The notes under the pieces are model-generated. The model ran no database searches, was not told where the DNA came from, and worked only from the letters and a program-made list of their open reading frames with translations. The position numbers were made by a program, and so were the translations under genes. From a virus (lineage: Duplodnaviria > Heunggongvirae > Uroviricota > Caudoviricetes), in the IMG/VR virus record IMGVR_UViG_2737471839_000017, positions 1 to 26,854 of that record: DNA of 26,854 nucleotides; one strand, given 5' to 3'. Shown piece by piece: positions 2,949-21,798 of this stretch. Positions within the stretch are counted from its first letter, which is position 1; every line of letters starts with the position of its first letter.

Positions 2949-3412
2949 TATTTTCTCTCCATGTGAAATCTGTGGAAATTAAGACCAAGAGCACCATAAG
3001 GCGCGGCTTCTTCAAGCCTGAATCCAAGCCAGTGCAGCCATGCTTTGGCAACATGGTTTCGCTCGTCGACGTAGTTTTCCAGGCGTGGATAAACTGCCAG
3101 CATCTGCTGCAATACAGGGCGGCAGTGGCGAAGAAATGTCTTCTGATATTTTTCAATACGGCTGGTTCCTACCAGCCAGGGCGTACCATTGCCACCGATC
3201 ATTGACGCCGGAGATACGCCAAACATGGTTACCAGTTCTCCGTTCGCAAATCCTGACCAGGCCATAGTCGCAGTACGCAGACCAACACGCAGCGCATCTT
3301 CGGTAGTCATCAGTGATACCGCATACAGTTCGTCAATATCAGCCTGACGAACATCCGGCAAAATCATCTGAAGATGCTCTTCGGTAGCGGGAATAATTCG
3401 AACATCGATCAT
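2948..3412 (-). CDS. Virion protein, gp13-like position (154 aa)
   Basis: ORF coupled by ATGA overlap to the 821-aa gene upstream; assignment is by position only. Confidence 0.35.
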   Translation of the reverse strand: MIDVRIIPATEEHLQMILPDVRQADIDELYAVSLMTTEDALRVGLRTATMAWSGFANGELVTMFGVSPASMIGGNGTPWLVGTSRIEKYQKTFLRHCRPVLQQMLAVYPRLENYVDERNHVAKAWLHWLGFRLEEAAPYGALGLNFHRFHMERK

Positions 3413-5877
3413 CAGAATCCCCCAACAGTAAGGCGAGGAATAACGGCAAGAACAGACAGCGGCAACGGGTCAAGCTGACGGATTTTTACACGTCCGTTTT
3501 TGCCCCAGTTACTGTCCAGTTTCACTTCTACTTTTCCGGTAGCGTCATCAACAGGATCATCGTAGAACTCGAATTCACGCTGTGGATATTCGTACCATTT
3601 ACCGCTGGGCGTAGTCGCCCAGATGCCGCGACTGGCATTCACAACCAGAGTAACGGACGGGATCACCTGTTTTTTGTCCAGCAGCGTTTCCTGTCCGTTA
3701 ATGTTGATATCCAGTGTTTCGAATTCGGCAGTTATTGGCAGGCCGATGTGCACTACAGCCCCCGGAGATTCCAGCGTGACGGCACCTCCGGAAACCACTT
3801 TCTGTGGTTCCACGTTCGCATCAGAGAGAATGTTTACGGTCTGGCCTTCAAGATGAGACAGGCCTCCAAATGTCCGGCGCGCCATCTGCCAGTTCGTGGT
3901 GGCCACATTCCTGAGGGATGGCGGGACGTTCCTGTTAGCACGAACCACTACAGCGGTATTGCTGGTTACAGAAATAATGTCGCAACGTAATTCTTTTGAC
4001 ACTTCATCGCCAGTATCAGTTCCGGTATAAGGGAACTGTAGTTGCGCGCCGACATCACTACTGGTGAAGTACGCACCACCAGAAACACTGATTGTATATT
4101 CCGCGCGGTAATCCCATTCGCCAGAACCACCAATGATTGTCATCGTTCTGTCAGACGTATTTCTTCCATCATAGCTAAGGCCAGAATCAACAAAGAAAGC
4201 GTCTTCATCGCTGGTAAATAAACGGCTGGACAGCCGCTCGATGTATCTCACTGTTTGCCCGTTAACGGTTCGGTTAACGACGAAATACACCGCATCTTCA
4301 TTGCCTTCGCTGATACTGCACGTGCTTTCATATTTTCCGGTACTGGACTGTGGTGCCCATGCAAAAACCTGTTGATCACGCAAATAGGTCATCACCAGTA
4401 ATTTACCGTCATCACGAATGCAGAAGGCGCTGGAGTAAGGGACAATCGAGAAGCACCAGTCAACAATGCTGTGCTTCTGAAAAAGATGATTGGCAAGGAT
4501 GGTCAGGTCGTTCCCCTGATAGCCGTCAACATCGAATGAGTAGGCCAGATCACGGACAACGCTGCCTTTCTCCTGGACGAACAAAGCAATATTCGCCACG
4601 GCAATTGGCGGGACGTTGCTTGAGCCATTTGATCCCTGAGAGCTGAATGCAAATGATGATGGGGTTAACACTTTGTTCTGGTCGCCGGTGATGACGTACT
4701 CACCTCCGGAAGTCAGCGCCACCAGAGAACCAACATCAATCAGGTGACGGATCTCATTAACCTGACGCCCGGCATAGGTGTAGATAATTCTGTCGTCATC
4801 CTGCGTAGGATTGCTTTTGCCAAAATCCTTATAATCCCCAGTACGGCTGGCCCAGATAGTCTGAGGGAACGCAGTCGATGCGGCGAAGTAAAGACGTTGT
4901 TGATAATAAACAACAGTGCCAGGATAACCATTAACACTGTTCCAGGCATATTTAGCCCATTTATAGCTGGCATTATCCTCGCCAACGACCTGCGAAGGGA
5001 TATAGGAAATCACCTCGGCAGTTGCAGTAGTTCCATTTGCAGCAGTGATACGGGCAATGCCAAAACCACTGTGCAGATATTCCCACTCAATGCCAGTATC
5101 ATCATCACCGGATCCGCCCCAGCCATCCCATGATGTGCCTTCTGTATGCGAAGGGCGCAAAGTACCTGTTTTGCCTGCTGTAACGGCGCGATAGTAGTTA
5201 CTGTCTGCACGGCGAATATCGCCAATCGACGTACTCTTACTGGTTTCCCATACCGGCACTGAATCCACTGCAGGCTGTTCCAGATAGAACAATTTTCCTA
5301 CCTGCTCCGCGCCAAAAATAGAGGCGCTTGCCGTTAACGTAATTGTCCCGGTGCTGGCGCTGGCATAAACCGTCACTGACTCGTCAATATTGATATCTTC
5401 AAATGGTCCGTTCTTCGTTACCACATCAACCAGTTGCCAGTTGTCATGCGCATAGCGACGCAACTCTTTCGGCGGGTATGCCGGATGAACAAGCGTAAGC
5501 ACGTCTGCGCTTTGCGTGAATTTAATTCGGAACAGATCGGCTTCAGTATATGGCGTGGCAATTTCATAAATAACATTGCTGCTGTTCAGCACCAACGCAC
5601 CATCTTTGATAACGCGCATGTACTGGTGTCCGAACTCCAGAGCATAAGTCTGAACCGTCGAGAACTGGAACGGTATCAGGCGGCATTTCCGATTTGGGTA
5701 TTTGGCGGCACCGACAAAACGCGTACCAGGTCGATTCTCAACGCCGCCATACTGCCGCACGATAAAGTTATCGCACTTGCGCAATGCCACCTGGTACTTC
5801 GCCATGTCGATACGACCGTACAACGACGGTCCAATCTCACCACCGGCAAAGCTGGGCTGGATCCAACTGATAGCCAT
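3412..5877 (-). CDS. Tail tubular protein B-like (821 aa)
   Basis: Size and position directly after a gp11-like gene; ATGA start/stop overlap with the upstream gene; beta-rich Ser/Thr/Gly composition typical of tail proteins. Confidence 0.5.
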   Translation of the reverse strand: MAISWIQPSFAGGEIGPSLYGRIDMAKYQVALRKCDNFIVRQYGGVENRPGTRFVGAAKYPNRKCRLIPFQFSTVQTYALEFGHQYMRVIKDGALVLNSSNVIYEIATPYTEADLFRIKFTQSADVLTLVHPAYPPKELRRYAHDNWQLVDVVTKNGPFEDINIDESVTVYASASTGTITLTASASIFGAEQVGKLFYLEQPAVDSVPVWETSKSTSIGDIRRADSNYYRAVTAGKTGTLRPSHTEGTSWDGWGGSGDDDTGIEWEYLHSGFGIARITAANGTTATAEVISYIPSQVVGEDNASYKWAKYAWNSVNGYPGTVVYYQQRLYFAASTAFPQTIWASRTGDYKDFGKSNPTQDDDRIIYTYAGRQVNEIRHLIDVGSLVALTSGGEYVITGDQNKVLTPSSFAFSSQGSNGSSNVPPIAVANIALFVQEKGSVVRDLAYSFDVDGYQGNDLTILANHLFQKHSIVDWCFSIVPYSSAFCIRDDGKLLVMTYLRDQQVFAWAPQSSTGKYESTCSISEGNEDAVYFVVNRTVNGQTVRYIERLSSRLFTSDEDAFFVDSGLSYDGRNTSDRTMTIIGGSGEWDYRAEYTISVSGGAYFTSSDVGAQLQFPYTGTDTGDEVSKELRCDIISVTSNTAVVVRANRNVPPSLRNVATTNWQMARRTFGGLSHLEGQTVNILSDANVEPQKVVSGGAVTLESPGAVVHIGLPITAEFETLDININGQETLLDKKQVIPSVTLVVNASRGIWATTPSGKWYEYPQREFEFYDDPVDDATGKVEVKLDSNWGKNGRVKIRQLDPLPLSVLAVIPRLTVGGF

Positions 5878-6482
5878 CAGGACAACCTCGCAATGGTAAA
5901 CTCGTCAACCGGTGGCTGTGGTTCCTGTGATTCATTCTGGCTATGCGAACCAGCACTAAGAATCACGCGATTGTACATATTGAGAGCAAATGTACCGAGA
6001 TCCGCATTCCCAGTCAGCGCCATGTTAATGGCTGCCGCAAGACGCCAGGCCAGCGCCTCCATAAAAATGGCATCAAACATGTTCACATCTGAAACGCGAG
6101 AGACATACTTGAGCCATGCCTGCGGCTGGTCTGTATAGATCAATTTTCCTGTTCCGTTGGTGTCTGCACCAACTTCGTACTGAACGCGCATTGCTGCTGT
6201 TGGATTGCGTACACCAGGAAGCATAATTTCAGTAATGCGCAGACAATCGGACGGGTACTGGTACGCATATTCCCAGTCAGGCGGTGGATTGTTCGTATCT
6301 GCAAGCGCCACGCGTTTGGTAGCAAAGTTCCAGTCAAAATCAGAAAGCACAGCATCACGGCAGGCCTCAAAGTGCAGCGAACATTCCCCCGCTTCCTTGC
6401 TGGCTTCCGTCAGGCTGTTAATGCTGCGGCTATTGCCAATATTGGACAGCGCACGATTGCAGATCTCTACTACAGAGGCCAT
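5877..6482 (-). CDS. Tail tubular protein A-like (201 aa)
   Basis: Length close to T7 gp11 (196 aa) and N-terminal 'CNRALSNIGNSRSINSLTE' resembles gp11 'DILASIGEPPVSTLE' from memory; not searched. Confidence 0.5.
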   Translation of the reverse strand: MASVVEICNRALSNIGNSRSINSLTEASKEAGECSLHFEACRDAVLSDFDWNFATKRVALADTNNPPPDWEYAYQYPSDCLRITEIMLPGVRNPTAAMRVQYEVGADTNGTGKLIYTDQPQAWLKYVSRVSDVNMFDAIFMEALAWRLAAAINMALTGNADLGTFALNMYNRVILSAGSHSQNESQEPQPPVDEFTIARLS

Positions 6483-6805
6483 TACTCACCCCCATTGCCG
6501 TACAGAGTTTCAGCCGCTGATTTTTCTACATCCCCGGAAACAGGAGCGATCGCCATATCAGTGATCTGCAGATCGGCGCTGCGATTAACACCATCGTCAG
6601 TTTCTCTGGCAGACAGGCCTCGAATAACAGCCTTTGCAGTTATCATCACTTCTGTTCCAACGCCCTGAGGTTGCGCCTTCAGCTTATTCAATGTGTCGTT
6701 ATTCAGCGTGATGCACAGCCCCCACGGGTATTCATCGCGAGTTCTGGTTTCTCCGCTCTCATCCTGGTAGCTGTCAGTGCCGGTTTTGAGGTTTACGAGT
6801 TCCAT
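6482..6805 (-). CDS. Hypothetical virion-module protein (~107 aa; likely start ATG at 6805 rather than GTG at 6811)
   Basis: ORF with RBS AGGAG 7 nt upstream of the ATG at 6805. Confidence 0.4.
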   Translation of the reverse strand: MELVNLKTGTDSYQDESGETRTRDEYPWGLCITLNNDTLNKLKAQPQGVGTEVMITAKAVIRGLSARETDDGVNRSADLQITDMAIAPVSGDVEKSAAETLYGNGGE

Positions 6806-6812
6806 ATACACT

Positions 6813-6840
6813 CCTGCAATAAAGGGGCCGAAGCCCCTTG
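6813..6840 (-). terminator. Intra-operon intrinsic terminator/attenuator candidate
   Basis: On the minus strand GGGGC-ttcg-GCCCC hairpin followed by TTTATT, between the 6856 and 6805 genes. Confidence 0.35.
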
Positions 6841-6855
6841 TCTGATCCGCGAGGC

Positions 6856-7191
6856 TTACACGCCCAGTTCTTTACGCTTATCTGCGATCTTCTCGCGGAG
6901 CGTTTCGGCTTTGGCGTTATGGTGTGGCTTCTCGTTAAAGAGCAATTCGTACTCTTCACGGAGCTTATCCAGTTCACCATCATCTGACACATCGTTGATG
7001 ATTTTGGTGCTGGTTGCTGCCATTGACACCTTTCCTGCAACTTTTGCTTTTTCCTGTCTGGCTGCATCGTTAACAGGTTCCAGTGCGCTACCAGGCTCAC
7101 CTTCGTATTCGATTTCTGCCCCCTCAGGCCACAGTGTGTTATGGATATGAGAGAGGCGCAGAACGCGGTATCTTGGTTTCTCACCTGACAT
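6856..7191 (-). CDS. Hypothetical virion-module protein (~111 aa; start ATG at 7191 preferred over GTG at 7200)
   Basis: ORF; RBS AAGGTGA 7 nt upstream of the ATG at 7191. Confidence 0.4.
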   Translation of the reverse strand: MSGEKPRYRVLRLSHIHNTLWPEGAEIEYEGEPGSALEPVNDAARQEKAKVAGKVSMAATSTKIINDVSDDGELDKLREEYELLFNEKPHHNAKAETLREKIADKRKELGV

Positions 7192-7201
7192 CGATATCAC
7201 C

Positions 7202-7639
7202 TTAACCAGTTACTTTTGAGCGGATCGGATACGGCGTATTGGCATCAACATCAAGACTGATACCAGCAGTGAATTCGCCAGCCGTTAGTGGGCCAGTTGC
7301 GACGGAGTAGTTAACACGCAGATATCGCTGAACACCGGCAGGCACCTTTGCAGAAACAACTCGTTTACCTGCTGTCAGGGCGGTCTTTGCCAGTGCGCCA
7401 CTATCATAAATAGTGGTCCATGAGCTGTTATTCTCACTCGTCTGCAACTGGATGTTTACAGTTGCATCACCGCTTGCCGCGGCGGCTGTGTTAACCAGCG
7501 CCCAAAACTCAAGCGGGTAACCCACGCCGATATCACGACGTTTTCCGTCAATTGGACCGAGATCGATTACGTCAGTAGAAGCCGCGGTATTCGTAACCGC
7601 CTGAGCTTCGGAGAACATCAACAGTTTGTCGGTGATCAT
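7202..7639 (-). CDS. Putative minor capsid/decoration protein (145 aa)
   Basis: Immediately downstream of the major capsid gene; RBS GGAGAAAG; Thr/Ala/Ser-rich beta-type composition. Confidence 0.4.
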   Translation of the reverse strand: MITDKLLMFSEAQAVTNTAASTDVIDLGPIDGKRRDIGVGYPLEFWALVNTAAAASGDATVNIQLQTSENNSSWTTIYDSGALAKTALTAGKRVVSAKVPAGVQRYLRVNYSVATGPLTAGEFTAGISLDVDANTPYPIRSKVTG

Positions 7640-7690
7640 CTTCTTTCTCCATTAGTGGGTCTGTTACGACCCACAGGTTAATAACAGGCG

Positions 7691-8683
7691 TTACACCACG
7701 CGGGCTTCTGTTTCCAGAAGCGCATCAGTTTCACGAATTGGTACACCACGGAATGAAGTCCACCACTCGCCTTCAGTCTCTTTTACGCTGATAGCCAGAG
7801 ATGTTTTCTCCAGAGACTGTAGATCAAGAGCCTGGCCTACAGTGCGGTTCATGTAGAACACCGGGCGGCCCATGCCACGGTTTGGAATGCGATGCAGTGC
7901 TTTAACCATCAACTTCGCAATATTTGCGGCAGAGGAAGGTTCTGAAAGATTGCTGACATCGATGTTTGCAATGCGAACAACATAACGCCAGTCACGCAGA
8001 GCAAGTCCGTTGTCCCATTTGTAATGGGTACGGTAGCCTTCGTACTTGCCGCCATTCGCATCTTCCAGTGTCACCTGGCCTTTATCTTCCATCTGGATGC
8101 CAGCCTTCTGCCCTTTCGGGAAGATGCCATGCACGGTGTTTTCGCCCCACACCACTAACCAGATTGAGGTGTTATCTGTACCCGTGCCACCAGCATCAAT
8201 GATGTTCTGAGCATTACCCGCAGACAGGCTGGAATAGCGGGAGGACAGTCCCATAAACTGCTGAGGGTTAACGCTGGAATCACCATAAAACAGCGTCTGC
8301 GCCATCTGCTGATTCATCGCTTCAATAAATGCGCGGTCTTCAGACAGGCGGAATTCGGCGGTATTGCCGTTCAGATCAGCCAGTGACTTATCGACTTCAG
8401 CATAGGTTTCCAGCATGCCAACGGAATCGGTTACCTGCACTGTGGTTGATTTGCTTGGCTGTACGCCATAGTTCAGCAAACGCCAGGTAGCTGAAGGTAA
8501 ACCAGAACGAATGGTGGTTCGGTGTCCGGTAGGAAGGTTCCCTTCGACAAAAGGCATATCCTGAAGGATCGGGTTAGTTTGACCGAGAAGCTCGATAATC
8601 TTATCGACTTTCCCGTTTGGATCGACGCGCTTACCCCAGTCAGCCAGCGTTAGCGCAGTTAAGCCTTTAACAGCCATTGTCAT
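7691..8683 (-). CDS. Major capsid protein (330 aa)
   Basis: Position after the scaffold gene, size, RBS GAGAGG; family not determined. Confidence 0.65.
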   Translation of the reverse strand: MTMAVKGLTALTLADWGKRVDPNGKVDKIIELLGQTNPILQDMPFVEGNLPTGHRTTIRSGLPSATWRLLNYGVQPSKSTTVQVTDSVGMLETYAEVDKSLADLNGNTAEFRLSEDRAFIEAMNQQMAQTLFYGDSSVNPQQFMGLSSRYSSLSAGNAQNIIDAGGTGTDNTSIWLVVWGENTVHGIFPKGQKAGIQMEDKGQVTLEDANGGKYEGYRTHYKWDNGLALRDWRYVVRIANIDVSNLSEPSSAANIAKLMVKALHRIPNRGMGRPVFYMNRTVGQALDLQSLEKTSLAISVKETEGEWWTSFRGVPIRETDALLETEARVV

Positions 8684-12010: not shown

Positions 12011-12087
12011 GTGGCATTAGCTCAGTTGGACAGAGCAACCGCCTTCTAAGCGGTTGGTCGCAGGTTCGAATCCTGCATGCCACGCCA
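12011..12087 (+). tRNA. tRNA-Arg (anticodon UCU), 77 nt including CCA
   Basis: Hand-folded cloverleaf: acceptor GTGGCAT/ATGCCAC, D stem GCTC/GAGC, anticodon stem ACCGC/GCGGT with loop CTTCTAA, T stem GCAGG/CCTGC with TTCGAAT loop, CCA end. Confidence 0.85.
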
Positions 12088-12173: not shown

Positions 12174-12250
12174 CAGCAGGACGCCATTGCGATGGCTTCA
12201 TGCTGTAAACCAGTACAGCCACGGAAGGCATAACTCATTGCTTCCAGTTC

Positions 12251-12285: not shown

Positions 12286-12657
12286 ATGAACGACAAGCAA
12301 ATCGAAAAAGAAATCGTTGAGAAAGGCAAAACGGCACCGCGCGTTACGCCAGACCATATCGAAGGCATTATTGCTCAGGAGGCATATTTCACAGCAGAAG
12401 ATGGTGCCTTTGGCAAAGCCATAAAAGCGAAACATACTGGCGGAGAGGTAAACTACCAGCCGCACGAATCACTTTCTCTGCTGACGTTCTGCGTCCTGGT
12501 GCTGCGCAACGGCTTCACCGTCACCGGAGAGAGCGCCTGTGCAAGCCCGGAAAACTTTGATGCAGAAATTGGTCGGAAGATTGCCCGGCAGAATGCTGTA
12601 AACAAAATCTGGATGCTCGAAGGTTACTTGCTGAAGCAGAAGCTAAGCGAGCAATAA
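12286..12657 (+). CDS. Hypothetical moron protein (123 aa)
   Basis: Strong RBS AAGGTGAG 4 nt before the ATG; followed by a terminator; opposite strand to the flanking late genes. Confidence 0.6.
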   Translation: MNDKQIEKEIVEKGKTAPRVTPDHIEGIIAQEAYFTAEDGAFGKAIKAKHTGGEVNYQPHESLSLLTFCVLVLRNGFTVTGESACASPENFDAEIGRKIARQNAVNKIWMLEGYLLKQKLSEQ

Positions 12658-14223: not shown

Positions 14224-14816
14224 TGATTACCATCCTGACGTTCTTTGAGTCGCTTCCTGGCTGCTGCTATGCGATCAGCAATTGTCACATTCACATTAAC
14301 ATCCAGACGTTCTTTGAACGCGTTGACATCAACATGCTTACCAATCAGCTCAAGGTTCTTCACCTTGTCAGGCCATTTAATTTTTTTGAGGATTGTCTCT
14401 ATCGAATCCTCGTTCATGTTCATGATGGTCGACGACAGATCAAAGCCACTAAGCGTAGTGCGCCAGATTTTCGGCCACTCGCGGATTGGCTTAAGGCTCC
14501 CATCGTCGTTGAGGATATCAATCACGTCCATCTGGTCGATCTCCACCAGGCGCATGAGAACGTAATCAGCACTGACGCGCATTCGTTTGTTGCGCTCCTC
14601 CATCAACTCGGCAATCCGTTTTTGAATGCGTTCATCGCGCATCATGACACTGGCTTTAACTGCCGCTGTATTTGGGGAAAATCCTGCGTTAATCGCTGCC
14701 TGAGTCTGGTTTTCAGGCGTTTTGATGTATGACTGGCAATAAGCCTCCTGCATTGCTGTTAGTGGCTTAAATTGCGTTGATTTGCGTTTATAGGTTTTAG
14801 GTTCAGCAGGCATCAT
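14220..14816 (-). CDS. Terminase small subunit (start probably ATG 14816 or 14813; listed ORF extends to 14894 through a terminator hairpin)
   Basis: Immediately upstream of and coupled to the large subunit; N-terminal region 'AMQEAYCQSYIKTPENQTQAAINAGFSPNTAAVKASVMM' matches the small-terminase pattern from memory. Confidence 0.65.
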   Translation of the reverse strand: MMPAEPKTYKRKSTQFKPLTAMQEAYCQSYIKTPENQTQAAINAGFSPNTAAVKASVMMRDERIQKRIAELMEERNKRMRVSADYVLMRLVEIDQMDVIDILNDDGSLKPIREWPKIWRTTLSGFDLSSTIMNMNEDSIETILKKIKWPDKVKNLELIGKHVDVNAFKERLDVNVNVTIADRIAAARKRLKERQDGNQ

Positions 14817-14856
14817 AACCACCGTGGTAATAGTTACCGTTGTGGTAATAGTACCA

Positions 14857-15273: not shown

Positions 15274-15503
15274 CAACCTTCTCTCCATGCCTGGTTTCTG
15301 GTTTTAAGTCCATTGCGCTTGGCATTTCTCTGAATCCGTTTCAGTTCTTCCCTGGACTGCTCTGGAGTTATTTCTCCTCTCATAACTCGTTCAACAAGAC
15401 TCCTTCTAACTTCCATACTGTCAGCGATAAGACCTTGTTCTTCTAGCTTCTCGATATTCACGCGCTTATCAAGGCGAGCATCCCAACTTGAGCGTCTCAT
15501 CAT
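15273..15503 (-). CDS. Hypothetical small basic protein (76 aa)
   Basis: Strong RBS AGGAGG 5-6 nt upstream; ATGA coupling downstream. Confidence 0.5.
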   Translation of the reverse strand: MMRRSSWDARLDKRVNIEKLEEQGLIADSMEVRRSLVERVMRGEITPEQSREELKRIQRNAKRNGLKTRNQAWREG

Positions 15504-16059
15504 TCATCCTCCTGCTGTAATGCTGCAACCATGGCTTTGGTTTCAGCGATTAGATTTCGTGGTAACTGGCTACCCGCTTTTAGCATGCCTATCCCAAACA
15601 CCAGCCAGCGCTGCAGCATGTCCGCATAGCCATCCGGAGTTACCGGAGAGTTGCCGGGTTCTTTATGTGCAAGCGAGGCTCACCATCTTTTGGCTCAGGC
15701 CACTGGCGCTCCATGTTGATCTTCAATTTATCTTCCATAGCAACGGTAATTTCAGCATCGCTGATGCCAGCACGGCGCTGTGCATCCCACAACAGGAACT
15801 GCATATCAGCCCACTCGCTAAGATCGTCTGGTTCGGCTGCGGCTTCCAGAGCCTCTTTTGAGAGGTGTTTCAGTGGACCAATGGGGCCAACGCAGCCAAA
15901 TGTGGAGTCAGACCATTTGGCATGCTCGTGGCGAATCTGTTCGCGTTCCAGTAATGCCAGTGCAATTCGTGCCAGTTCCATTTGTTCGCCACGAGTAAGC
16001 CCGTTATCAAGCGGATTTTTAATGAATAATTCGATACGTTCTTTGGTTATAGTGCTCAT
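15500..16059 (-). pseudogene. DUF550-like gene apparently split by a +1 frameshift: frame A 15640-16059 (139 aa) continues in another frame 15500-15679 (59 codons)
   Basis: Second frame is open from 15679 to a TGA that overlaps the next gene's ATG; RBS AAGGAG before the ATG at 16059; the shift must lie within 15640-15679. DUF550 identity is recalled, not searched. Confidence 0.4.
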
Positions 16060-16060
16060 A

Positions 16061-16696
16061 TCACTCTCCTTTGATGCGAATGCCAGCGTCAGACATCATA
16101 TGCAGATACTCAACTGCATCCTGAACCCATTGACCGCCAATCCCGTAATAGCGATGCGTAATGATGTCGATAGTTACTAACGGGTCTTGTTCGATTAACT
16201 TCCGCAGAAACTCTTCCAGGTCACCAGTGCAGTGCTTGATGACAGGAGTTTTCCCGGGATGGCGAACAACAAGAAACTGATTTCCGACTTCACGGACTTC
16301 GTTGCTTTCCAGTTCTGCAATGCGCTTCTCTGCGGCTTCCAGCTCAACACGCAGCTTCCCTACCGTTAACGCAATATCCTCGTTCTCCTGGTCGCGGGAT
16401 TTGATGTATTGCTGGTTCCTTTCCAGCTCATCCAGCAGCGCCAAGACGGTAGCCGGATTGGCTGCGGCGATGAATTCAGCATTGGCCTGCTGTTCCATTT
16501 GGAAATCTTCATAGAAACCGCTTTCAGGATGCGCTCCTTCAATTCTGCAAATGGGAAGATATCCAACAACTTCACGATGAATTAGCGCATCACCAGCATC
16601 AAATCTCTCCTCTCCATATTCGAGCGTCCACACGCCACACGTTGCTTTTTCTGCTTTTTCACGCAGTGCCTGATAGTCAATTGTCATTCTCGCCAT
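16061..16696 (-). CDS. Ead/Ea22-like family protein candidate (start 16696 or 16687)
   Basis: N-terminal 'TIDYQALREKAEKATCGVWT' and central coiled-coil region resemble Ea22-like prophage proteins from memory. Confidence 0.5.
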   Translation of the reverse strand: MARMTIDYQALREKAEKATCGVWTLEYGEERFDAGDALIHREVVGYLPICRIEGAHPESGFYEDFQMEQQANAEFIAAANPATVLALLDELERNQQYIKSRDQENEDIALTVGKLRVELEAAEKRIAELESNEVREVGNQFLVVRHPGKTPVIKHCTGDLEEFLRKLIEQDPLVTIDIITHRYYGIGGQWVQDAVEYLHMMSDAGIRIKGE

Positions 16697-17328
16697 CCTT
16701 CACAGTTGTAATCACTACAGCCTTTAAAATCATATGGGTTGTACTGCCAGGTGATTTTTCCGCAATGCGGACAATTCCAACGCACCTTCCCGCTTCGCGA
16801 CTTCTTTCTTCTGTTCTGCTCTTTCAACCAGTCAGGCATGACCAAACCTGCGCCCTGAACCATTGTTCTGCGGTTAAAGTTATTGATATTGAACGTCCGG
16901 CGCTTTGCTGAATCAGCAATGGAAAATGGCAACCAAACTATTCCTGGTTCGTTTTTGTTGGCGACGCTAAAGATGGTCGCTTTACTGAAGTCATCTGTTG
17001 GCAATCCACCGTGTTGAAGCCAGTAAACATCGTTGCCGTTCCAGCTACCTTTTTTGTAGGCCACATACGCAGTGCAATCTGGCTCAATCAGGTTTTCTGT
17101 AGGGATGTACTGGCAATCAACGTGCCACACTGCCATTGCATCCACGCTATCAGCGCAAACAGGCTGATCGATATCTCGCCCACAATTCCAGGCTTTTTGG
17201 GCTTCTTCCAGCGTGTAAACATGAGCGCGATCGATATCAGAACTGTAACCATTGCCGTTATGGCAATGGAATGAAGCGTTATTGCCCACAGTTTCACGCG
17301 AGCACATCATGTAAAAACGGTTAGTCAC
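16684..17328 (-). CDS. Cys-rich hypothetical protein with C-terminal zinc-ribbon-like motif (214 aa; GTG start with RBS AGGAGG)
   Basis: C-terminal 'WNCPHCGKITWQYNPYDFKGCSDYNCEGW'; no recognised family. Confidence 0.5.
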   Translation of the reverse strand: MTNRFYMMCSRETVGNNASFHCHNGNGYSSDIDRAHVYTLEEAQKAWNCGRDIDQPVCADSVDAMAVWHVDCQYIPTENLIEPDCTAYVAYKKGSWNGNDVYWLQHGGLPTDDFSKATIFSVANKNEPGIVWLPFSIADSAKRRTFNINNFNRRTMVQGAGLVMPDWLKEQNRRKKSRSGKVRWNCPHCGKITWQYNPYDFKGCSDYNCEGWRE

Positions 17329-17951
17329 TGGTTGCCTCCTTTTCGAAGCTGGGCGGCGATACCTTCGAGAACGCCATCAGAGAATGAGCGGTCAAAATCG
17401 CCTTCCGGCGCATTAGCCATAAACTCAGTAGAGGTAAGAATCATCCGGGCAATATCCGCGGCGTTCTTCGCAGTATCATCAATAAAACCAGCTTCCCAGG
17501 CAGCCAGCATTCTGTTCGCCACAAAATAAGCTCCTTCCTTGCGTGCTTTAGTCCTCACTTCAGCCAGAAAAGCATCGGTTGCTGGCGTTTCGCTGTGGTG
17601 TAGGGCATCGTTGATAATCATTGCAGCAACTCCGGCCTGCCCTGCATCCGTGACCGACACATGCTCAAGAGTTACAGCCATTGCGTGTTTCAGCCCAGCA
17701 TTCTCCGCAGCCAGCGCCGAAAACTTCTCGTGTGCCAACTTAACAGCCGAATCAGCCTGTTTAATTGACTCAATGGCTCTCTGGTGGTCTTCGGCCAGCG
17801 CATTAGCACGCACCAGTTGCACTTCCAGTTGCGTTGCCAAATCGCTGATCAGCTTTGCCACACTGCGCATATCAACGGCACCACATTCTGCTTTCAGTTC
17901 CGAAGCCATCTCATGCCCGGCGGAAACTAACCCTTTGATATTACTTTCCAT
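17325..17951 (-). CDS. Coiled-coil accessory protein, Ea22-like candidate (208 aa)
   Basis: RBS GAGGG 7 nt upstream; Ala-rich helical N-terminal half. Confidence 0.5.
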   Translation of the reverse strand: MESNIKGLVSAGHEMASELKAECGAVDMRSVAKLISDLATQLEVQLVRANALAEDHQRAIESIKQADSAVKLAHEKFSALAAENAGLKHAMAVTLEHVSVTDAGQAGVAAMIINDALHHSETPATDAFLAEVRTKARKEGAYFVANRMLAAWEAGFIDDTAKNAADIARMILTSTEFMANAPEGDFDRSFSDGVLEGIAAQLRKGGNQ

Positions 17952-18012: not shown

Positions 18013-18357
18013 TCAGAACTCTTCGATGTTCCAGCCACCACCTGCTTTCTTTGGTTTAACCGTTACCCCGATGATTCGGAACGGATACTGATCTGCGGCG
18101 ACTTTGGTTTTCACCCTGGCGTCGTCGGTCCAGAAACCTTTCACTTCGTGCAGTTCCATCTCTCCGGTGGCGAGCATCACAGCGAAATCTGGCGTATAGA
18201 ACGTGTTGTCAGCTAACCGCAGCTTGATACCCTCGAATCGATACCAGGCGATTTCCCCTGCACGTTTACGCAGCTCAAGGTGCTGGCAATACGCAGATTC
18301 TGTTTTGTTCATCTGGCCTGTTTTGAGTCGACCAAGAGCCTGTATCTGTTTTCTCAT
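18013..18357 (-). CDS. DUF1064-like phage protein (114 aa)
   Basis: First gene after a promoter/operator region; family recalled, not searched. Confidence 0.5.
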   Translation of the reverse strand: MRKQIQALGRLKTGQMNKTESAYCQHLELRKRAGEIAWYRFEGIKLRLADNTFYTPDFAVMLATGEMELHEVKGFWTDDARVKTKVAADQYPFRIIGVTVKPKKAGGGWNIEEF

Positions 18358-18374
18358 GATTTACCCTTGAGGTA

Positions 18375-18403
18375 ATTAAAAACCACATAAGACACGAAAT
18401 CAA
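18375..18403 (-). promoter_or_regulatory. Sigma70-like promoter for the accessory operon (-35 TTGATT, 17-nt spacer, -10 TTTAAT on the minus strand), with operator sites at 18361-18375 and 18424-18438
   Basis: Hexamers read on the minus strand; the perfect palindrome TTACCCTTGAGGTAA overlaps the predicted start site and contains the RBS. Confidence 0.45.
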
Positions 18404-18474
18404 TAGAGTTTAGAATGTTTTGTTACCCAACAGGTAACTATCGAGGCGTAAAAAAATGCGCTATCGCGCTGGTA

Positions 18475-19275
18475 TTACTTGATAAATCCTGCCGCCTTTC
18501 CTCGCCTGTATTCCTCCATCAGCCACTGCGCCGGTGTTATTCCCCCAAGGGTGGCGGCGTTAGGCATGCACCCGAAACTTCGCCCTGGTGGATGGTAAAC
18601 GTCTCTCCCTGTGTCCGGAGGTGTACTCATGGGTTCTGGCTTTGCCTGTATGCTGATCACCGGATCGGGTATCTGCTGCCCGGAATCCACCTTTTTCGCC
18701 CAATCATCGAGCAGCCTGCGTGCGTGTTTCTCAACCTCAATCTCGCTAAGCTGGCGCTGATACATTGCACGGCGGGTATCACATACGACCCAGTACATAA
18801 CCGGATGTCGCCACGGGAATCTTTCGGGACCACCAGGATATAAACTTTTTTCCTTGCTGTACCGGTGAAACTCCGCCATCACATCGTCAATGGTGACGCC
18901 AAGAACCATCTTGCTGTCTTTGCACCACTTGATAAATTGCCCTGGAGACGGCCAGAACGGAGATTCACTGGCGCGGGCGTGGCGCATACCAGCAGAAACC
19001 TGTTCACGGGTTCGGATCCCCCCTTCGGCAAACGCAGCAATCCACTGCTGTTTTGCAGCAACTTCCTGCTCTGGCGTCTTCAGGTTGGTTACCACTGCCG
19101 CCGGAAACAGTTGTTTCAGCTGTTTAAAAAGGGCATCAACAAGCCTCTCTGCTGACATGTTCACCACATTGTCATTGTTGACGTACTGATGCTCATAACC
19201 TGACATGCGAGAAAGGGCTTCTCCGTCACGGTTTTGTATCGCGGTAAAAACGTTGTTCACAAGAAATCCTCCCAT
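18475..19275 (-). CDS. Replication protein P-like (helicase loader), 266 aa
   Basis: Segment '...FPAAVVTNLKTPEQEVAAKQQWIAAFAEGGIRTREQVSAGMRHARASESPFWPSPGQFIKWC' parallels lambda P '...FPASLANRDQNEVNEIRRQWVLAFRENGITTMEQVNAGMRVARRQNRPFLPSPGQFVAWC' from memory. Confidence 0.75.
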   Translation of the reverse strand: MGGFLVNNVFTAIQNRDGEALSRMSGYEHQYVNNDNVVNMSAERLVDALFKQLKQLFPAAVVTNLKTPEQEVAAKQQWIAAFAEGGIRTREQVSAGMRHARASESPFWPSPGQFIKWCKDSKMVLGVTIDDVMAEFHRYSKEKSLYPGGPERFPWRHPVMYWVVCDTRRAMYQRQLSEIEVEKHARRLLDDWAKKVDSGQQIPDPVISIQAKPEPMSTPPDTGRDVYHPPGRSFGCMPNAATLGGITPAQWLMEEYRRGKAAGFIK

Positions 19276-20156
19276 GCTTCAGGGCTGTTCCAGTGCGGAA
19301 CGTTGTTATCAGGTAATGTTGATTGCTTCTGTCTGCTAATCTGCAGCCGCCTTGCCAGCTTCTGCTCCCACTGTGCCTGATGGTATGCCTTACCCTCAGC
19401 CATCCAGTAAATTCTGAACTCTGCAAGTTCCTGTGCCGTTGGCAGACTGTCCAGGTAGATCCCCTGCAATGAGCTTTTCCGAAGAAAGTCATCTGATGGC
19501 TGCCATTGTTCATGCATGACAAATTTGCCTAATTGCCCTGGCCCACCTGGAGGAACAAAGTTATTCATCACGGCGTTGTTTGCGCCGGGGTCATGGGGCA
19601 CGGAATCCCCGATTTTTGTCCTGCTCTCCCTCTCTTGGTTAAATGACTGGTTATATGACTGGTTCTGGATCCCGTTTTTGGGATCATTCAACATCCCGTT
19701 TTTGGGATCATTCAATATCCCGTTTTTGGGATCATTCAATATCCCGTTTTTGGGATCATTCAATATCCCGTTTTTGGGTATATTCCCGTTTTCGGGAACA
19801 TTACCGTTTTCGGGAACATTACCGTTTTCGGGTTCATTACCGTTTTCGGGTTCATTACCCCCTTCCCGTTTGCCTTTAATGTTCCCTTTTTTGGTTATAT
19901 TAAGAGAGAAAACCCGTACTCTTTTCGTCGCCCCCTTTCTCTCTCCGGTATCTGAAATAAGCCCCATTTTCATGAGCGATATAAGCCCGGCCTGCACGGT
20001 TTTTTTATTCAGGCAAGTGTCTTTAACGAGGCGTTCTATGCTGGGGTAGCAGAGGTTATATTCATCGGCTCTGTCAGCCATCGAGAGCAGTATGAGCTTT
20101 AATGATGAGCTACCTGGATCTGTCTCCCAGGCCCAATCTGTTGCATGTCTGCTCAT
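19257..20156 (-). CDS. Replication initiator O-like protein (299 aa) carrying the iteron-encoded peptide repeats
   Basis: Directly upstream of and overlapping the P-like gene; internal DNA iterons; RBS GGAG 9 nt upstream. Confidence 0.7.
   Translation of the reverse strand: MSRHATDWAWETDPGSSSLKLILLSMADRADEYNLCYPSIERLVKDTCLNKKTVQAGLISLMKMGLISDTGERKGATKRVRVFSLNITKKGNIKGKREGGNEPENGNEPENGNVPENGNVPENGNIPKNGILNDPKNGILNDPKNGILNDPKNGMLNDPKNGIQNQSYNQSFNQERESRTKIGDSVPHDPGANNAVMNNFVPPGGPGQLGKFVMHEQWQPSDDFLRKSSLQGIYLDSLPTAQELAEFRIYWMAEGKAYHQAQWEQKLARRLQISRQKQSTLPDNNVPHWNSPEAWEDFL
19670..19910. repeat. Origin of replication candidate: about 4.5 copies of a 24-bp iteron (ATCCCGTTTTTGGGATCATTCAAY), 4 copies of an 18-bp iteron (CCGTTTTCGGGWWCATTA), then an AT-rich stretch
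   Basis: Tandem direct repeats read in sequence; each unit contains a short inverted repeat (ATCCC/GGGAT or CCCG/CGGG); located inside the O-like gene as in lambda ori. Confidence 0.65.
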
Positions 20157-20171
20157 GATTAATCTCCGCTA

Positions 20172-20372
20172 TCAGCTTGAGTGTTGTGGGGAGGAATTAA
20201 TCATGATCTGCTTAATCTCTGCCCTGATGCGACGGTTTGATTCCATGGTGCACTCAACACAGTGTCCGTTGTAAACCCAGCGTTCACTGTCATGTCCGTG
20301 CTTACATGGTTTTCCGGTGTAGTAGCGTTTAAGTCCGCGCTTTGCGGCATCAATACGTGTAATGATTTCCAT
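20172..20372 (-). CDS. Small Cys/His-rich protein (about 66 aa; start at 20372, listed ORF extends to 20435)
   Basis: Motif CKHGH...CVEC; sits between the cro-side terminator and the O-like gene. Confidence 0.4.
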   Translation of the reverse strand: MEIITRIDAAKRGLKRYYTGKPCKHGHDSERWVYNGHCVECTMESNRRIRAEIKQIMINSSPQHSS

Positions 20373-20470
20373 GGTAAGCCCTGTTATTGGTATTGGGATT
20401 ACGGTTATTTTGTGCTGACACAAAAAAAAGATCAACCATATTTGGTTTTTTATTACCTTTGAGGTACGAA

Positions 20471-20501
20471 TAGATATGAAAAGACCGCCGGATGGCGGTC
20501 T
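20471..20501 (-). terminator. tR1-like terminator candidate downstream of the cro-like gene
   Basis: 8-bp stem AGACCGCC / GGCGGTCT with a 4-nt loop; moderately T-rich tail on the minus strand. Confidence 0.35.
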
Positions 20502-20522
20502 ACAGAGGGTTGTGGCTGGATA

Positions 20523-20753
20523 TCATGAGTAGAAGAAGTATGCCAGTTCTGCTTTTGAGCGCAGCCATTGTCTTGTTTTACAGGCTTTAAAAAGCCCATC
20601 CATCAATACCTTACCTGGCATTTTGCGCTTACCTGTTAAGTGAGTCTGGATATAGTGACTCGTCGTTCCGGCTTCCTGTGCGAAGGCTTCACGCTCATCC
20701 GGAGTAAGTGCAAGCCAGTGCTTTTTGAAATCGAAATGTCCGTTATCGCTCAT
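20523..20753 (-). CDS. Cro/CII-like small HTH regulator (76 aa)
   Basis: Divergent from the repressor candidate across an operator-rich intergenic region; HTH-like segment 'FAQEAGTTSHYIQTHLTGKR'. Confidence 0.5.
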   Translation of the reverse strand: MSDNGHFDFKKHWLALTPDEREAFAQEAGTTSHYIQTHLTGKRKMPGKVLMDGLFKACKTRQWLRSKAELAYFFYS

Positions 20754-20784
20754 AGCTATTGCCTGATATTTATTTCAGATAATA

Positions 20785-20891
20785 AATATTCACCTATAAG
20801 GTAACAAAAATCAAGGATAGTTACCCATGAGGTGCATTTACCTGTTGGGTAATATTGCTTTAAATTGAATCATCTTCTGATTCAGATATGA
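20785..20891. promoter_or_regulatory. Divergent promoter/operator region (OR-like): minus-strand promoter -35 TTGATT / -10 GAATAT (20785-20813), plus-strand -10 candidates TAATAT (20849-20854) or TATGAG (20886-20891), operator sites at 20820-20834 (imperfect) and 20837-20851 (perfect)
   Basis: Hexamers and palindromes read in sequence; also a GGTAAC...GTTACC inverted pair at 20799-20824. Confidence 0.45.
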
Positions 20892-20907
20892 GGCGATTTT
20901 CCAGAAA

Positions 20908-21492
20908 ATGAAAAGTATCCAGGACGTCCGCAGGCAAAATCTCAACGACTTGATCGACCGTGAATTCAATGGTGTTCAGACGCGGATGGCAGAAAAACTT
21001 GGAACTCAGGCAAATCTGGTAAACCGCTGGGCTCTTGGCAAGAAGGTTATCGGCGACCAGGTTGCGCGAAAAATTGAAGCTGTCGCCAATAAACCACGTA
21101 ACTGGCTTGATATCGATCGCTCGCTTTCTCAGGAGGGTTTTCAGCCTGTCGGACCAAGCGACATTGGTCAGCTGGCGGCTCACAACCTGGAACGCTGGAT
21201 GAGCGAAAGCCGCGACCTTTCAACACAGGGAAAACTTCACCGCGCATCCGGCGTCGCCCAGGTGACAATCAGCCGCCTGTTAAACAATGAGGTCAGCGTT
21301 TCCATTTCCACCCTGGAGAATGTTGCATCTGCATTCGGGCGTCACGGATATGAACTACTGATTCACCCGCACGACCCTGCAACTATCAACTATGACCGCT
21401 CGCGCTACGCATTGTTACCTGAAACCGAGAAAGCAAAGATCGAAAGTTACATTGAATTTGTCATCAACCAGAACGAAAAAAACAAACAATAA
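20908..21492 (+). CDS. Tandem-HTH (XRE-type) DNA-binding protein, maintenance-repressor candidate (194 aa)
   Basis: Two HTH-like segments ('QTRMAEKLGTQANLVNRW' and 'LHRASGVAQVTISRLLN'); no Shine-Dalgarno before the ATG; followed by a terminator; cI-equivalent position. Confidence 0.55.
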   Translation: MKSIQDVRRQNLNDLIDREFNGVQTRMAEKLGTQANLVNRWALGKKVIGDQVARKIEAVANKPRNWLDIDRSLSQEGFQPVGPSDIGQLAAHNLERWMSESRDLSTQGKLHRASGVAQVTISRLLNNEVSVSISTLENVASAFGRHGYELLIHPHDPATINYDRSRYALLPETEKAKIESYIEFVINQNEKNKQ

Positions 21493-21514
21493 AATCATAC
21501 TTTTCAGTAAGTAA

Positions 21515-21538
21515 GCCGCCTTCTGGCGGCTTTTTTAT
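21515..21538 (+). terminator. Intrinsic terminator after the repressor candidate
   Basis: GCCGCC-ttct-GGCGGC hairpin followed by TTTTTTATT. Confidence 0.6.
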
Positions 21539-21549
21539 TGCCTATACTA

Positions 21550-21626
21550 TTACCTAATGGGTAATTTTTTTAACTCATATCTATTGACATCAAACCAAAT
21601 ACGCATAATTATTACCTAAACGGTAA
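21550..21626 (+). promoter_or_regulatory. PL-like early-left promoter (-35 TTGACA 21584-21589, -10 TAATTA/AATTAT near 21606-21612) flanked by operator sites at 21550-21564 and 21612-21626
   Basis: Consensus -35, 16-17 nt spacer, AT-rich -10; two perfect TTACC-N5-GGTAA palindromes. Confidence 0.5.
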
Positions 21627-21645
21627 CAGACCGAGGTAACAAGTT

Positions 21646-21798
21646 ATGCAGTGGAAAATCATCAACGGTTGGTACTGCGTTACTGCATGCGGATTCATGA
21701 GCTGGAAGTTCCGCACCTTACAGGAAGGCATTAAGTGGGCTTTCGTCAGCAAAGAAGCTCGCGATGTAGCCAACGATAACGAGATATGGGAGGGCTGA
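21646..21798 (+). CDS. Small ORF (50 aa), first gene of the early-left operon
   Basis: RBS GAGGT 9 nt upstream; not in the ORF track because it is shorter than 60 aa; own translation. Confidence 0.35.
   Translation: MQWKIINGWYCVTACGFMSWKFRTLQEGIKWAFVSKEARDVANDNEIWEG

Follow-up and report, generated by a model that had tools for sequence, protein, structure and literature searches.

The stretch of DNA analysed here, a window of 26,854 nucleotides, carries the immunity switch of an E. coli prophage of the phiV10/epsilon15 type, built around a repressor, Rep, that lacks a self-cleavage module. It is very likely that the switch of phiV10-type Uetakevirus prophages works like the Rep/Ant switch of the Salmonella phage SPC32H, and we infer the same mechanism in this prophage. 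The immunity region is 98% identical in DNA sequence to that of phiV10 (Uetakevirus), whose record labels gp40 a 'putative transcriptional repressor, two helix-turn-helix motifs'. Rep shares 99.5% identity with phiV10 gp40 and with ORF21 of phage ZX5 (193 of 194 residues alike), with V59 here in place of the alanine of gp40 as the sole substitution (A59V). The paper on vB_EcoP_ZX5 states that the sequence of ORF21 is the same as that of phiV10 ORF40 and reports that ORF21 overexpression left no free phage and lowered holin and endolysin mRNA by 99.97-99.99% (PMC9782041). That work used a GST fusion, and the antirepressor assayed in it was a Bro-N protein, other than the small Ant (PMC9782041).

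Rep is also homologous to SPC32H Rep over its full length. In a phmmer search, residues 1-190 aligned with residues 2-197 of PDB 5D50 chain A (E = 1.4e-41), and 5D4Z was matched as well; these two entries are crystal structures of SPC32H Rep, alone and with the antirepressor Ant. By blastp the two proteins are 41% identical over 196 columns, with 53% identity in the DBD, 32% in the MDD and 49% in the CAD. The low overall identity to the characterised protein, and that of the middle domain above all, counts against a shared mechanism. Because Rep is nearly identical to phiV10 gp40 and ZX5 ORF21 and is homologous to SPC32H Rep from end to end, its sequence identifies it as the maintenance repressor. 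The preliminary description had left room for an antirepressor instead, and both the ZX5 overexpression result and the SPC32H homology argue for the repressor. The ATG and N-terminus (MKSI.D.RR.N) of the protein are kept in six related phages.

Profile searches and structure prediction agree on the architecture of Rep. In Pfam, HTH_3 matched two stretches (E = 1.7e-9, the best at 106-147), and the N-terminus gave a further HTH-type match, YdaS_toxin, at 21-60. The AlphaFold model has helices at 4-59, a disordered stretch at 73-83, helices at 83-151 and then 157-193, with low model confidence for the C-terminal module in the monomer. Its top Foldseek matches were 5D50 and 5D4Z ('Rep-Ant complex from Salmonella-temperate phage'). 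These data suggest an HTH DNA-binding domain at about 1-60, a flexible linker at about 60-83, the MDD at about 84-152 and the CAD at about 154-193. In both full-length homology and three-part architecture, Rep belongs with the SPC32H-type Rep family. The account of SPC32H Rep in PMC9986798 assigns dimerisation to the second HTH-like domain (MDD), followed by a C-terminal module for tetramerisation and Ant binding, and describes this module as p53-like and as the part that makes tetramers. The term 'tandem-HTH' therefore fits the folds of Rep, and the role that this account gives the second HTH is dimerisation. A recent tandem duplication was rejected, as BLASTP finds no similarity between the two HTH halves. 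NLVNRW, the recognition helix of the N-terminal domain, does not vary within the genus, and neither does R123 in the 'recognition' helix of the second domain.

Rep does not qualify as a LexA/cI-type repressor, the class marked by S24, a Ser-Lys dyad and an Ala-Gly or Cys-Gly site. Peptidase_S24 was absent from the Pfam results for Rep even at E <= 1, NCBIfam returned weak HTH families alone and no S24, and the sequence has no G[DE]SM motif, Ala-Gly site or Cys-Gly site. All 85 of 85 Rep homologue clusters encode proteins of about 194 aa whose Pfam domains are all HTH, with S24 in none. Pfam, NCBIfam and the homologues likewise show no S24 or other C-terminal sensor domain. From the letters alone, the preliminary description had proposed two HTH-like segments, no LexA/S24-type Ser-Lys peptidase, and induction by an antirepressor or another route rather than by RecA-stimulated self-cleavage. 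The searches and the structure prediction proposed there bear out the first two points, and the third coincides with the published SPC32H mechanism as given in passages of PMC7380047 and PMC9638917.

Table 1. Features of the immunity region and dispersed operator-like sites (window positions).
Feature	Position	Strand	Basis or remark
rep, predicted maintenance repressor, 194 aa	20908..21492	+	homology, domain content
Cro-like HTH gene, 76 aa (phiV10 gp41 / epsilon15 gp39)	20523..20753	-	first gene of divergent early operon leading to replication genes
Putative operator O1, TCACCTATAAGGTAA	20790..20804		overlaps core of leftward promoter into Cro-like gene
Putative operator O2, TTACCCATGAGGTGC	20821..20835		right half-site degenerate; centre 31 bp from O1
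Putative operator O3, TTACCTGTTGGGTAA	20838..20852		centre 17 bp from O2; overlaps -35 of candidate rep promoter
PR-like promoter candidate of Cro-like operon, TTGTTA-17-TATTAT	20779..20807	-	consensus scan
Weak PRM-like promoter candidate for rep, TTTACC-18-TAAATT	20837..20866	+	8/12 matches, conserved columns
Intrinsic terminator after Cro-like gene	20482..20501	-	terminator scan; phiV10 annotation
Intrinsic terminator after rep	21513..21532	+	terminator scan; annotated in phiV10
Putative distal operator of PL-like promoter, TTACCTAATGGGTAA	21550..21564		equivalent epsilon15 sites annotated as repressor-binding
PL-like promoter, TTGACA-17-AATTAT	21584..21612	+	consensus scan, 10/12 matches
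Putative proximal PL operator, TTACCTAAACGGTAA	21612..21626		covers -10 end and predicted start site; centre 62 bp from distal operator
Single operator-like site, TTACCTTTGAGGTAC, 1 mismatch	20453..20467		between terminator of Cro-like gene and gp42/replication genes
Putative operator pair, 18361-18375 and 18423-18437	18361..18437		centres 62 bp apart
Two adjacent operator-like sites	14816..14848		directly upstream of probable terS start (ATG 14813, - strand)
Operator-like site, TTACCTTTCAGGTAA	11674..11688		intergenic, upstream of head-gene block

The exact palindrome TTACC-N5-GGTAA occurs seven times in the window, against 0.025 expected and a maximum of two in 2000 shuffles (Table 1). Three operator-like elements lie in the 154-bp region between rep and the divergent gene, and their positions are kept in Tyrion, BUCT554, a Klebsiella phage, epsilon15 and SPC32H; O2 is perfect in the last three. 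Outside the rep/cro region the motif is found at five further places in the window, the pattern annotated for epsilon15. Every copy sits in an intergenic or promoter position conserved across six phages, and the half-sites TTACC/GGTAA are invariant across the genus. The site ahead of gp42 is also found in phiV10, Tyrion and the Klebsiella phage. The pair at 18361..18437 brackets a predicted promoter for a DUF1064 gene (18013-18357, - strand) and recurs in phiV10 and SPC32H, with a repressor site marked at the corresponding place in the epsilon15 record. That record annotates TTACC-N5-GGTAA as repressor-binding at PL, before terS (12-27, with terS at 47) and before gp3 (2931-2947). It also marks repressor sites beside the ant homologue gp19 and ahead of a RuvC-like gene, so that the sites are dispersed there as in the window. 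In the interval from the repressor gene to gp39, the record marks none of the three sites, though the epsilon15 sequence has them. The TTGACA of the PL-like promoter is invariant in six phages, and this candidate would drive gp39, gp38 and the RecE/RecT-like genes, onward to int.

The divergent 76-aa protein matches PHROG 35, 'transcriptional repressor' (E = 5.6e-13), and, in a profile comparison, the DNA-binding domain of Rco (8bny; E = 0.01); a Pfam search reached no family for it. It is modelled by AlphaFold as a five-helix bundle (pLDDT 86), and Cro/C1-type HTH domains make up almost all of its best PDB matches, at TM scores of about 0.55-0.62 and weak E-values of at least 1. Fold and position fit a Cro-type regulator, and the gene may act as Cro; the divergent arrangement seen in the preliminary description, a Cro-like gene facing rep across three operator-like elements, holds. 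A genus-conserved TTGATT (20814-20809) lies near the PR-like candidate. The nin-like region beside the locus (15277-17793 of the window) is not common to phiV10, and tRNA was the only match in an Rfam scan of the window.

The predicted start of the rep transcript differs from the one expected. As had been described, rep has no usable Shine-Dalgarno sequence: its one GAGG stops 13 nt short of the ATG, and no SD-like element is conserved among the relatives. A promoter just upstream of the gene and a leaderless or near-leaderless mRNA had also been proposed, and these two claims find no support. The consensus scan finds no promoter on the + strand upstream of rep, and the sole positionally conserved candidate there is the weak PRM-like one, whose -10 element (TAAATT, 20861-20866) ends 41 nt before the ATG. 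This candidate may be the promoter that makes rep mRNA; transcription from it would start near 20873 and give a leader some 35 nt long without a Shine-Dalgarno sequence. A leaderless message appears unlikely, as the window has no suitably placed -10 element and the conserved promoter elements give it no support.

No match to ant was found in the window by tblastn with SPC32H Ant, phiV10 p24 or p23. The relatives in which we located ant (phiV10, ZX5 and the E. coli genome that comes closest) carry it as a small gene of 85-86 aa beside the tail-fibre gene, and phiV10 p24 is 88% identical to SPC32H Ant. In phiV10 (TACTGTGTATTTATACAGT), in ZX5, in SPC32H and in the nearest E. coli genome (TACTGTATAAATATACAGT), ant is immediately preceded by a near-consensus LexA box, CTGT-N8-ACAG. 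Every family member, ZX5 included, has the small ant together with its LexA box, and among phage records Ant is found in 35 and Rep in 36. Since ant lies outside the window, we assume from these relatives that this prophage has both the gene and the box. Within the window, exact matches to the LexA box motif occur at 7661 and 12203; the tally with one mismatch allowed, 11 where 9.6 are expected, shows no enrichment, and none of the matches lies in the immunity region.

Work on related phages connects Ant to DNA damage. Kim and Ryu are said to have found in 2013 that SPC32H Rep stayed intact on a western blot after mitomycin C treatment of a recA+ lysogen, and that SPC32H-type Ant forms a structural class of its own. 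A DNA-damaging microcin induced Uetakevirus prophages of the phiV10 species 21- to 47-fold. In the summary that PMC7380047 gives of Kim & Ryu 2013, LexA self-cleavage allows Ant to be made, and Ant then inhibits the repressor through protein-protein contact. A passage of PMC9638917 adds that the SPC32H Rep tetramer binds DNA and that an Ant tetramer breaks it.

By analogy, the switch may operate as follows. Rep would bind the 15-bp palindromes TTACC-N5-GGTAA through its N-terminal HTH, with the second HTH-like domain forming dimers and the C-terminal module assembling these into tetramers. In the lysogen, Rep would occupy O1-O3 in the rep/cro interval, both operators at the PL-like promoter, and the operators ahead of terS, the head genes, the DUF1064 operon and the gp42/replication genes. 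This occupancy would keep the lytic units off while rep is still expressed. After DNA damage, Rep would not be cleaved, because it has no S24 peptidase domain; RecA* would instead stimulate LexA self-cleavage and so derepress ant. An Ant tetramer would then bind the C-terminal module of Rep and split the tetramer, and Rep would leave the DNA.

Two other routes to induction have to be weighed. Rep could be self-cleaved as in lambda, on RecA* stimulation, through a cryptic or divergent C-terminal autoproteolytic module; the position and orientation of rep match those of lambda cI, and phiV10-type prophages do respond to DNA damage. We consider this scarcely credible, given the lack of S24 in Rep at E <= 1 and among the homologue clusters, the lack of a Ser-Lys-type motif or Ala-Gly site, and a C-terminal half that is all-helical and HTH-like with a short tetramerisation module and matches 5D4Z. 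The relevant passage of PMC7380047 also groups SPC32H with phages induced by a LexA-controlled antirepressor. A less remote idea, still unlikely, is that the effective antirepressor of phiV10-type phages is the larger Bro-N protein (ZX5 ORF4, phiV10 p23) and not the small Ant. With ZX5 ORF4 overexpressed, lysogens fell about 1000-fold and repressor mRNA dropped by 75% (PMC9782041), and the phiV10 annotation lists p23 as a putative anti-immunity protein. However, ORF4 ends in 74 residues with 42% identity to the small Ant (E = 8e-16); it is therefore a fusion of Bro-N to an Ant domain and probably makes the same contact. In addition, the whole family has the small ant and the LexA box ahead of it, whereas SPC32H has no Bro gene at all, and p23 has no detectable Ant-like domain, the phiV10 record having one Ant-like place. 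The Bro-N and small-Ant readings are compatible and not mutually exclusive.

How Rep meets its operators can be read in other ways as well. If Rep were a true tandem-HTH binder, each HTH of one chain would read one half-site and the monomer would act as a pseudo-dimer. The second domain does outscore the first as HTH_3, and the invariance of R123 points the same way, yet the operators are symmetric palindromes while the two halves of Rep lack detectable similarity. NLVNRW and the half-sites are invariant, whereas the second domain is conserved at just 32%, and the passages on the homologue in PMC9638917 and PMC9986798 have the middle domain dimerise and the N-terminal domains bind DNA in pairs. 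This mode of binding thus appears very improbable. Nor is there any real likelihood that the palindromes are chance repeats or bind another factor, such as the Cro-like protein only: their excess over expectation, their conserved intergenic and promoter positions and their annotation as repressor-binding in the epsilon15 GenBank record all speak for repressor operators. Cro-type proteins normally share the operators of the repressor, and Cro binding would therefore be additional, not alternative.

Returning to the Rep/Ant reading, one of the closest known systems is that of SPC32H itself, with the same DBD-MDD-CAD layout, no S24 and the same gene order: a Cro-like gene, three operators, rep, a terminator, then operators and PL. 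The half-sites are the same, but the central 5 bp are A/T-rich there and mixed here, and SPC32H and epsilon15 have three operators at PL where this prophage has two. The epsilon15 repressor, gp38, is a 42% identical homologue of Rep. The Gifsy/Fels-2 prophages and coliphage 186 (Tum) follow the same logic of an uncleavable repressor and a LexA-repressed antirepressor, as outlined in PMC7380047, but their repressor and antirepressor proteins are unrelated to Rep and Ant. Lambda cI, P22 c2 and LexA offer a likeness in genome position, the divergent Cro-like gene, the three OR operators and the PL operators, and share the N-terminal Cro/C1-type HTH with Rep. Unlike in lambda-type phages, the operators of Rep spread over late-gene promoters too. 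The lambda-type proteins tetramerise through S24, whereas Rep, without S24, would use the p53-like C-terminal module described in PMC9986798. The same source proposes for SPC32H Rep the combination found in Rco (pLS20) and the p53-type TetDloop regulators, an N-terminal HTH with a C-terminal beta-strand/helix tetramerisation module, but those regulators lack the extra middle dimerisation domain of Rep.

Across the E. coli, Salmonella, Enterobacter and Klebsiella phages of the genus, the recognition helix and half-sites are fixed and Ant is 60-88% identical, while Rep falls to 41% identity. One speculative reading of these sequence comparisons, which we think doubtful, is that the prophages are mutually immune and mutually inducible. 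In lambdoid phages, the repressor-operator pair sets the immunity type. If the speculation were true, with the central 5 bp carrying no specificity, immunity type here would not be set by that pair, and each promoter, late ones too, would be shut off directly by a single tetramer that spans the conserved 62-bp operator pairs.

A two-HTH repressor, a near-identical protein tested in ZX5 and a cleavage-independent Rep/Ant mechanism, worked out structurally for a homologue, are all already known; the locus has little weight as a discovery, and its practical use is in annotation. Spotting the Rep and Ant pair would mark prophages as SOS-inducible through LexA and Ant despite an uncleavable repressor. 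The rep region is present in 539 of 5426 complete E. coli genomes, about one in ten, and the ant region in 531. In those genomes, RefSeq names Rep a 'helix-turn-helix domain-containing protein' and Ant a 'hypothetical protein'.

The immunity region of Escherichia phage phiV10, an epsilon15-like podovirus (genus Uetakevirus), and about 16 further E. coli phage records share 98% identity with positions 20400-21700 of the window. Collinearity with phiV10 extends over the whole window, taking in structural genes, terS, replication genes, immunity region and integrase in that order, with a replaced block at 15277-17793 as the sole break. The counterpart of the 194-aa repressor, Rep, is phiV10 gp40, which is annotated as 'putative transcriptional repressor; two helix-turn-helix motifs' and differs from it at a single residue (V59 in the window, A in gp40). 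gp41 is the counterpart of the divergent 76-aa ORF, and the phiV10 record marks terminators after both genes.

Rep has two HTH-like segments and no S24 signature, as the preliminary description had claimed. A Pfam scan matched HTH_3 over two stretches (E = 1.7e-9, best 106-147) and gave an N-terminal HTH-type match at 21-60, and Peptidase_S24 was absent even at E ≤ 1. NCBIfam returned weak HTH-type matches and nothing else, PHROGs assigned Rep to 'transcriptional regulator/repressor' families, and the sequence contains no G[DE]SM motif, Ala-Gly bond or Cys-Gly bond. Searching 5.8 billion proteins yielded 85 clusters of homologues, none with a non-HTH Pfam domain; full-length members are 190-235 aa (mostly ~194 aa), and the named members are all from Enterobacterales. 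In the AlphaFold model (mean pLDDT 78), a disordered linker (73-83) separates two helical domains, the N-terminal one at 4-59 and the second at 83-151, and a C-terminal segment spans 157-193. No similarity was found between the two halves of Rep. On comparative grounds the Rep start codon is well supported, because the N-terminus (MKSI.D.RR.N) and the surrounding DNA do not vary among six phages, with protein identity as low as 42%.

Rep aligns along its entire length with the 199-aa 'Repressor' of PDB 5D50 (chain A; E = 1.4e-41), and also with 5D4Z (E = 4e-20), which comprises residues 92-198 of that repressor. The best structural matches of the Rep model were 'Crystal structure of Rep-Ant complex from Salmonella-temperate phage' and 'Repressor from Salmonella-temperate phage'. 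Both entries derive from SPC32H, also a Uetakevirus, whose rep is 41% identical to that of the window. PMC9986798 divides SPC32H Rep into three parts: a DNA-binding domain at the N-terminus, a middle domain for dimerisation, and a C-terminal p53-like 'TetDloop' through which Rep forms tetramers and is bound by the antirepressor Ant. According to PMC9638917, Rep on DNA is a tetramer with paired DNA-binding domains from different dimers, and tetrameric Ant contacts two Rep dimers and splits the Rep tetramer. Identity between SPC32H and window Rep is 53%, 32% and 49% for the three parts, respectively. The earlier term 'tandem-HTH' thus fits the HTH-like folds, but the second domain is a dimerisation domain in the literature on this homologue.

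These data confirm the earlier observation on the immunity switch and support its central inference, that induction is independent of RecA-stimulated self-cleavage and driven by an antirepressor, since Rep lacks S24 and is homologous to a repressor with an Ant partner. Such induction is already known for exactly this protein family. PMC7380047, with Kim & Ryu 2013 among its cases, describes LexA self-cleavage leading to production of an antirepressor, which inhibits the repressor by protein-protein contact. In phage vB_EcoP_ZX5 (ZX5), overexpression of ORF21, stated to have the phiV10 ORF40 sequence, gave no free phage and lowered holin and endolysin transcripts by >99.9% (PMC9782041). Prophages of the phiV10 species were induced 21- to 47-fold by a DNA-damaging microcin (2026 preprint).

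SPC32H ant (86 aa) adjoins the tailspike gene, and its product shares 88% identity with phiV10 p24, which carries a hypothetical annotation. Directly 5' of ant is a near-consensus LexA box (TACTGTGTATTTATACAGT in phiV10, TACTGTATGTTTATACAGT in SPC32H), with a Rep-type operator ~50 bp further upstream. The window extends only to phiV10 coordinate 14651 and ant lies beyond; by tblastn the window holds no Ant-like or Bro-like gene. The E. coli genome with the closest immunity region (99.5% identity) has an 85-aa ant beside a tail-fibre gene, with TACTGTATAAATATACAGT 5' of it. Rep occurs in 36 phage records and Ant in 35; of the 5426 complete E. coli genomes searched, 539 have the rep region and 531 the ant region. 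The ZX5 paper names a Bro-N protein, ORF4 (3074-3769), as antirepressor (PMC9782041). The C-terminal 74 residues of ORF4 are 42% identical to small Ant (E = 8e-16), making it a Bro-N::Ant fusion, and just upstream of it ZX5 has a small ant (2501-2758, annotated as hypothetical) with a LexA box. Therefore, the two antirepressor accounts are compatible.

In that closest genome (NZ_AP042480.1), the prophage further contains genes for an Arc-family protein and an AntA-type antirepressor, which form a P22 immI-like module, together with a frameshifted BRO gene (local coordinates 6065-7795). These genes, which are not seen in the window, would provide an additional and independent system of anti-immunity. 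At 12203-12218 of the window, 68 bp upstream of ORF 12286-12657 (phiV10 p03 homologue), lies CTGTAAACCAGTACAG, an exact CTGT-N8-ACAG that is present in phiV10 and has no SPC32H counterpart; the match may be due to chance, as its flanks and centre suit LexA poorly.

The three operator-like elements described earlier between the Cro-like gene and rep, O1-O3, are borne out as predicted sites. Their centres are 31 bp (O1-O2) and 17 bp (O2-O3) apart, and the aligned columns are kept in Tyrion, BUCT554, Klebsiella phage BUCT711, epsilon15 and SPC32H with spacings of 30-31 and 17 bp. At the PL-like promoter, the proximal operator overlaps the -10 end and predicted start. Relatives keep the spacing of this pair (62 bp) and the TTGACA, and the epsilon15 GenBank record labels precisely these palindromes as 'repressor' binding sites. 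The exact operator motif occurs seven times in the window against 0.025 expected, and 2000 shuffles gave a maximum of 2.

Operator-like sites and associated elements in the window
Feature	Position	Sequence	Context
O1	20790-20804	TCACCTATAAGGTAA	divergent region
O2	20821-20835	TTACCCATGAGGTGC	divergent region
O3	20838-20852	TTACCTGTTGGGTAA	divergent region
Terminator	21513-21532		after rep
PL-like promoter element	21584-21612	TTGACA-17-AATTAT	strong
Distal / proximal PL operators	21550-21564 / 21612-21626		both perfect; flank PL-like promoter, downstream of rep terminator
Second 62-bp operator-like pair	18361/18423		before DUF1064 gene
Operator-like pair	14816/14834		immediately before probable terS start
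Single operator-like site	11674		before head-gene block
Single operator-like site	20453		past terminator of Cro-like gene

These dispersed sites are shared by phiV10 and SPC32H, and several are annotated in the epsilon15 record; they are already visible in public annotation and are not new. With such copies at promoter-like places in the window, phiV10 and SPC32H, Rep appears to shut off most transcription units directly. The DUF1064-gene promoter (TTGATT-17-TTTAAT, minus strand, 18355-18440) is laid out like the PL-like promoter, with one operator against the -10 and another 62 bp upstream. The ATG of this gene (18357) is 3 nt past the proximal operator, so its mRNA leader would be very short and lack a Shine-Dalgarno sequence (SD). 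In the phiV10 annotation, terS is called from TTG 14894 (minus strand), which places two Rep-type operators (14816-14848) and a hairpin resembling a terminator inside the ORF. ATG 14813 lies directly past these operators, and epsilon15 and SPC32H likewise have an operator before terS. The true start of phiV10-type terS probably lies ~80 nt downstream of the annotated one.

In agreement with the preliminary description, rep has no usable SD: the sole GAGG ends 13 nt short of the ATG, and no purine-rich element upstream of it is kept among relatives. The suggestion of a leaderless mRNA from a promoter just upstream was not supported. A consensus scan found no plus-strand promoter before rep, and a relaxed scan of six aligned sequences gave one positionally kept candidate, TTTACC (within O3)-18 nt-TAAATT (20861-20866). 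The candidate -10 is TAAATT in four of the six and TTAATT in Tyrion and BUCT554, and 41 nt separate its end from the ATG. The resulting promoter would be weak and PRM-like, with its -35 under O3 and O2 just upstream, and would produce a ~35-nt leader without SD rather than a leaderless mRNA.

The gene reported to diverge from rep as Cro/CII-like fits a Cro-like gene in predicted fold and in position. For its 76-aa product, PHROGs gave PHROG 35 'transcriptional repressor' (E = 5.6e-13) and Pfam gave no family; a profile from 29 homologues had a weak hit to the HTH domain of Rco, the repressor of pLS20 (E = 0.01). The AlphaFold model (pLDDT 86) folds five helices into a bundle, and almost all of its best PDB matches are HTH domains of the Cro/C1 type (TM ~0.55-0.62, but E-values of at least 1), including the YdaS N-terminal domain, the heads of the 434 and P22 c2 repressors and controller proteins of R-M systems. 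'Cro-like' is a fair label, with function inferred from gene position only. The first gene past the operator at 20453 encodes a 67-aa gp42 homologue (20172-20375, minus strand; PHROG 1081), whose Cys/His-rich motif CKHGH...HCVEC suggests a small zinc-binding protein. A DnaT-like primosomal ORF (19257-20156, minus strand) contains tandem peptide repeats (PENGN x4, DPKNGILN x4-5), and by blastn this block differs in length from that of phiV10.

Across phages of E. coli, Enterobacter, Klebsiella and Salmonella, Rep identity falls to 41% and Ant identity is 60-88%, and neither the Rep recognition helix NLVNRW nor the operator half-sites TTACC/GGTAA vary. At the operator centre, the Salmonella phages have A/T-rich sequence and the phiV10 type has a mixed one. 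Half-sites, recognition helix and Ant common to the genus bear on cross-immunity and cross-induction among Uetakevirus phages, both of which are possible. The other modest point concerns the conserved 62-bp operator pairs, which one Rep tetramer may use. Elsewhere in the window, ARAGORN called a tRNA-Arg gene (anticodon UCU; 12011-12087, plus strand; Rfam 73 bits), a stretch covered in the phiV10 record by a hypothetical CDS, p04; SPC32H annotates tRNA-Arg at the equivalent place.
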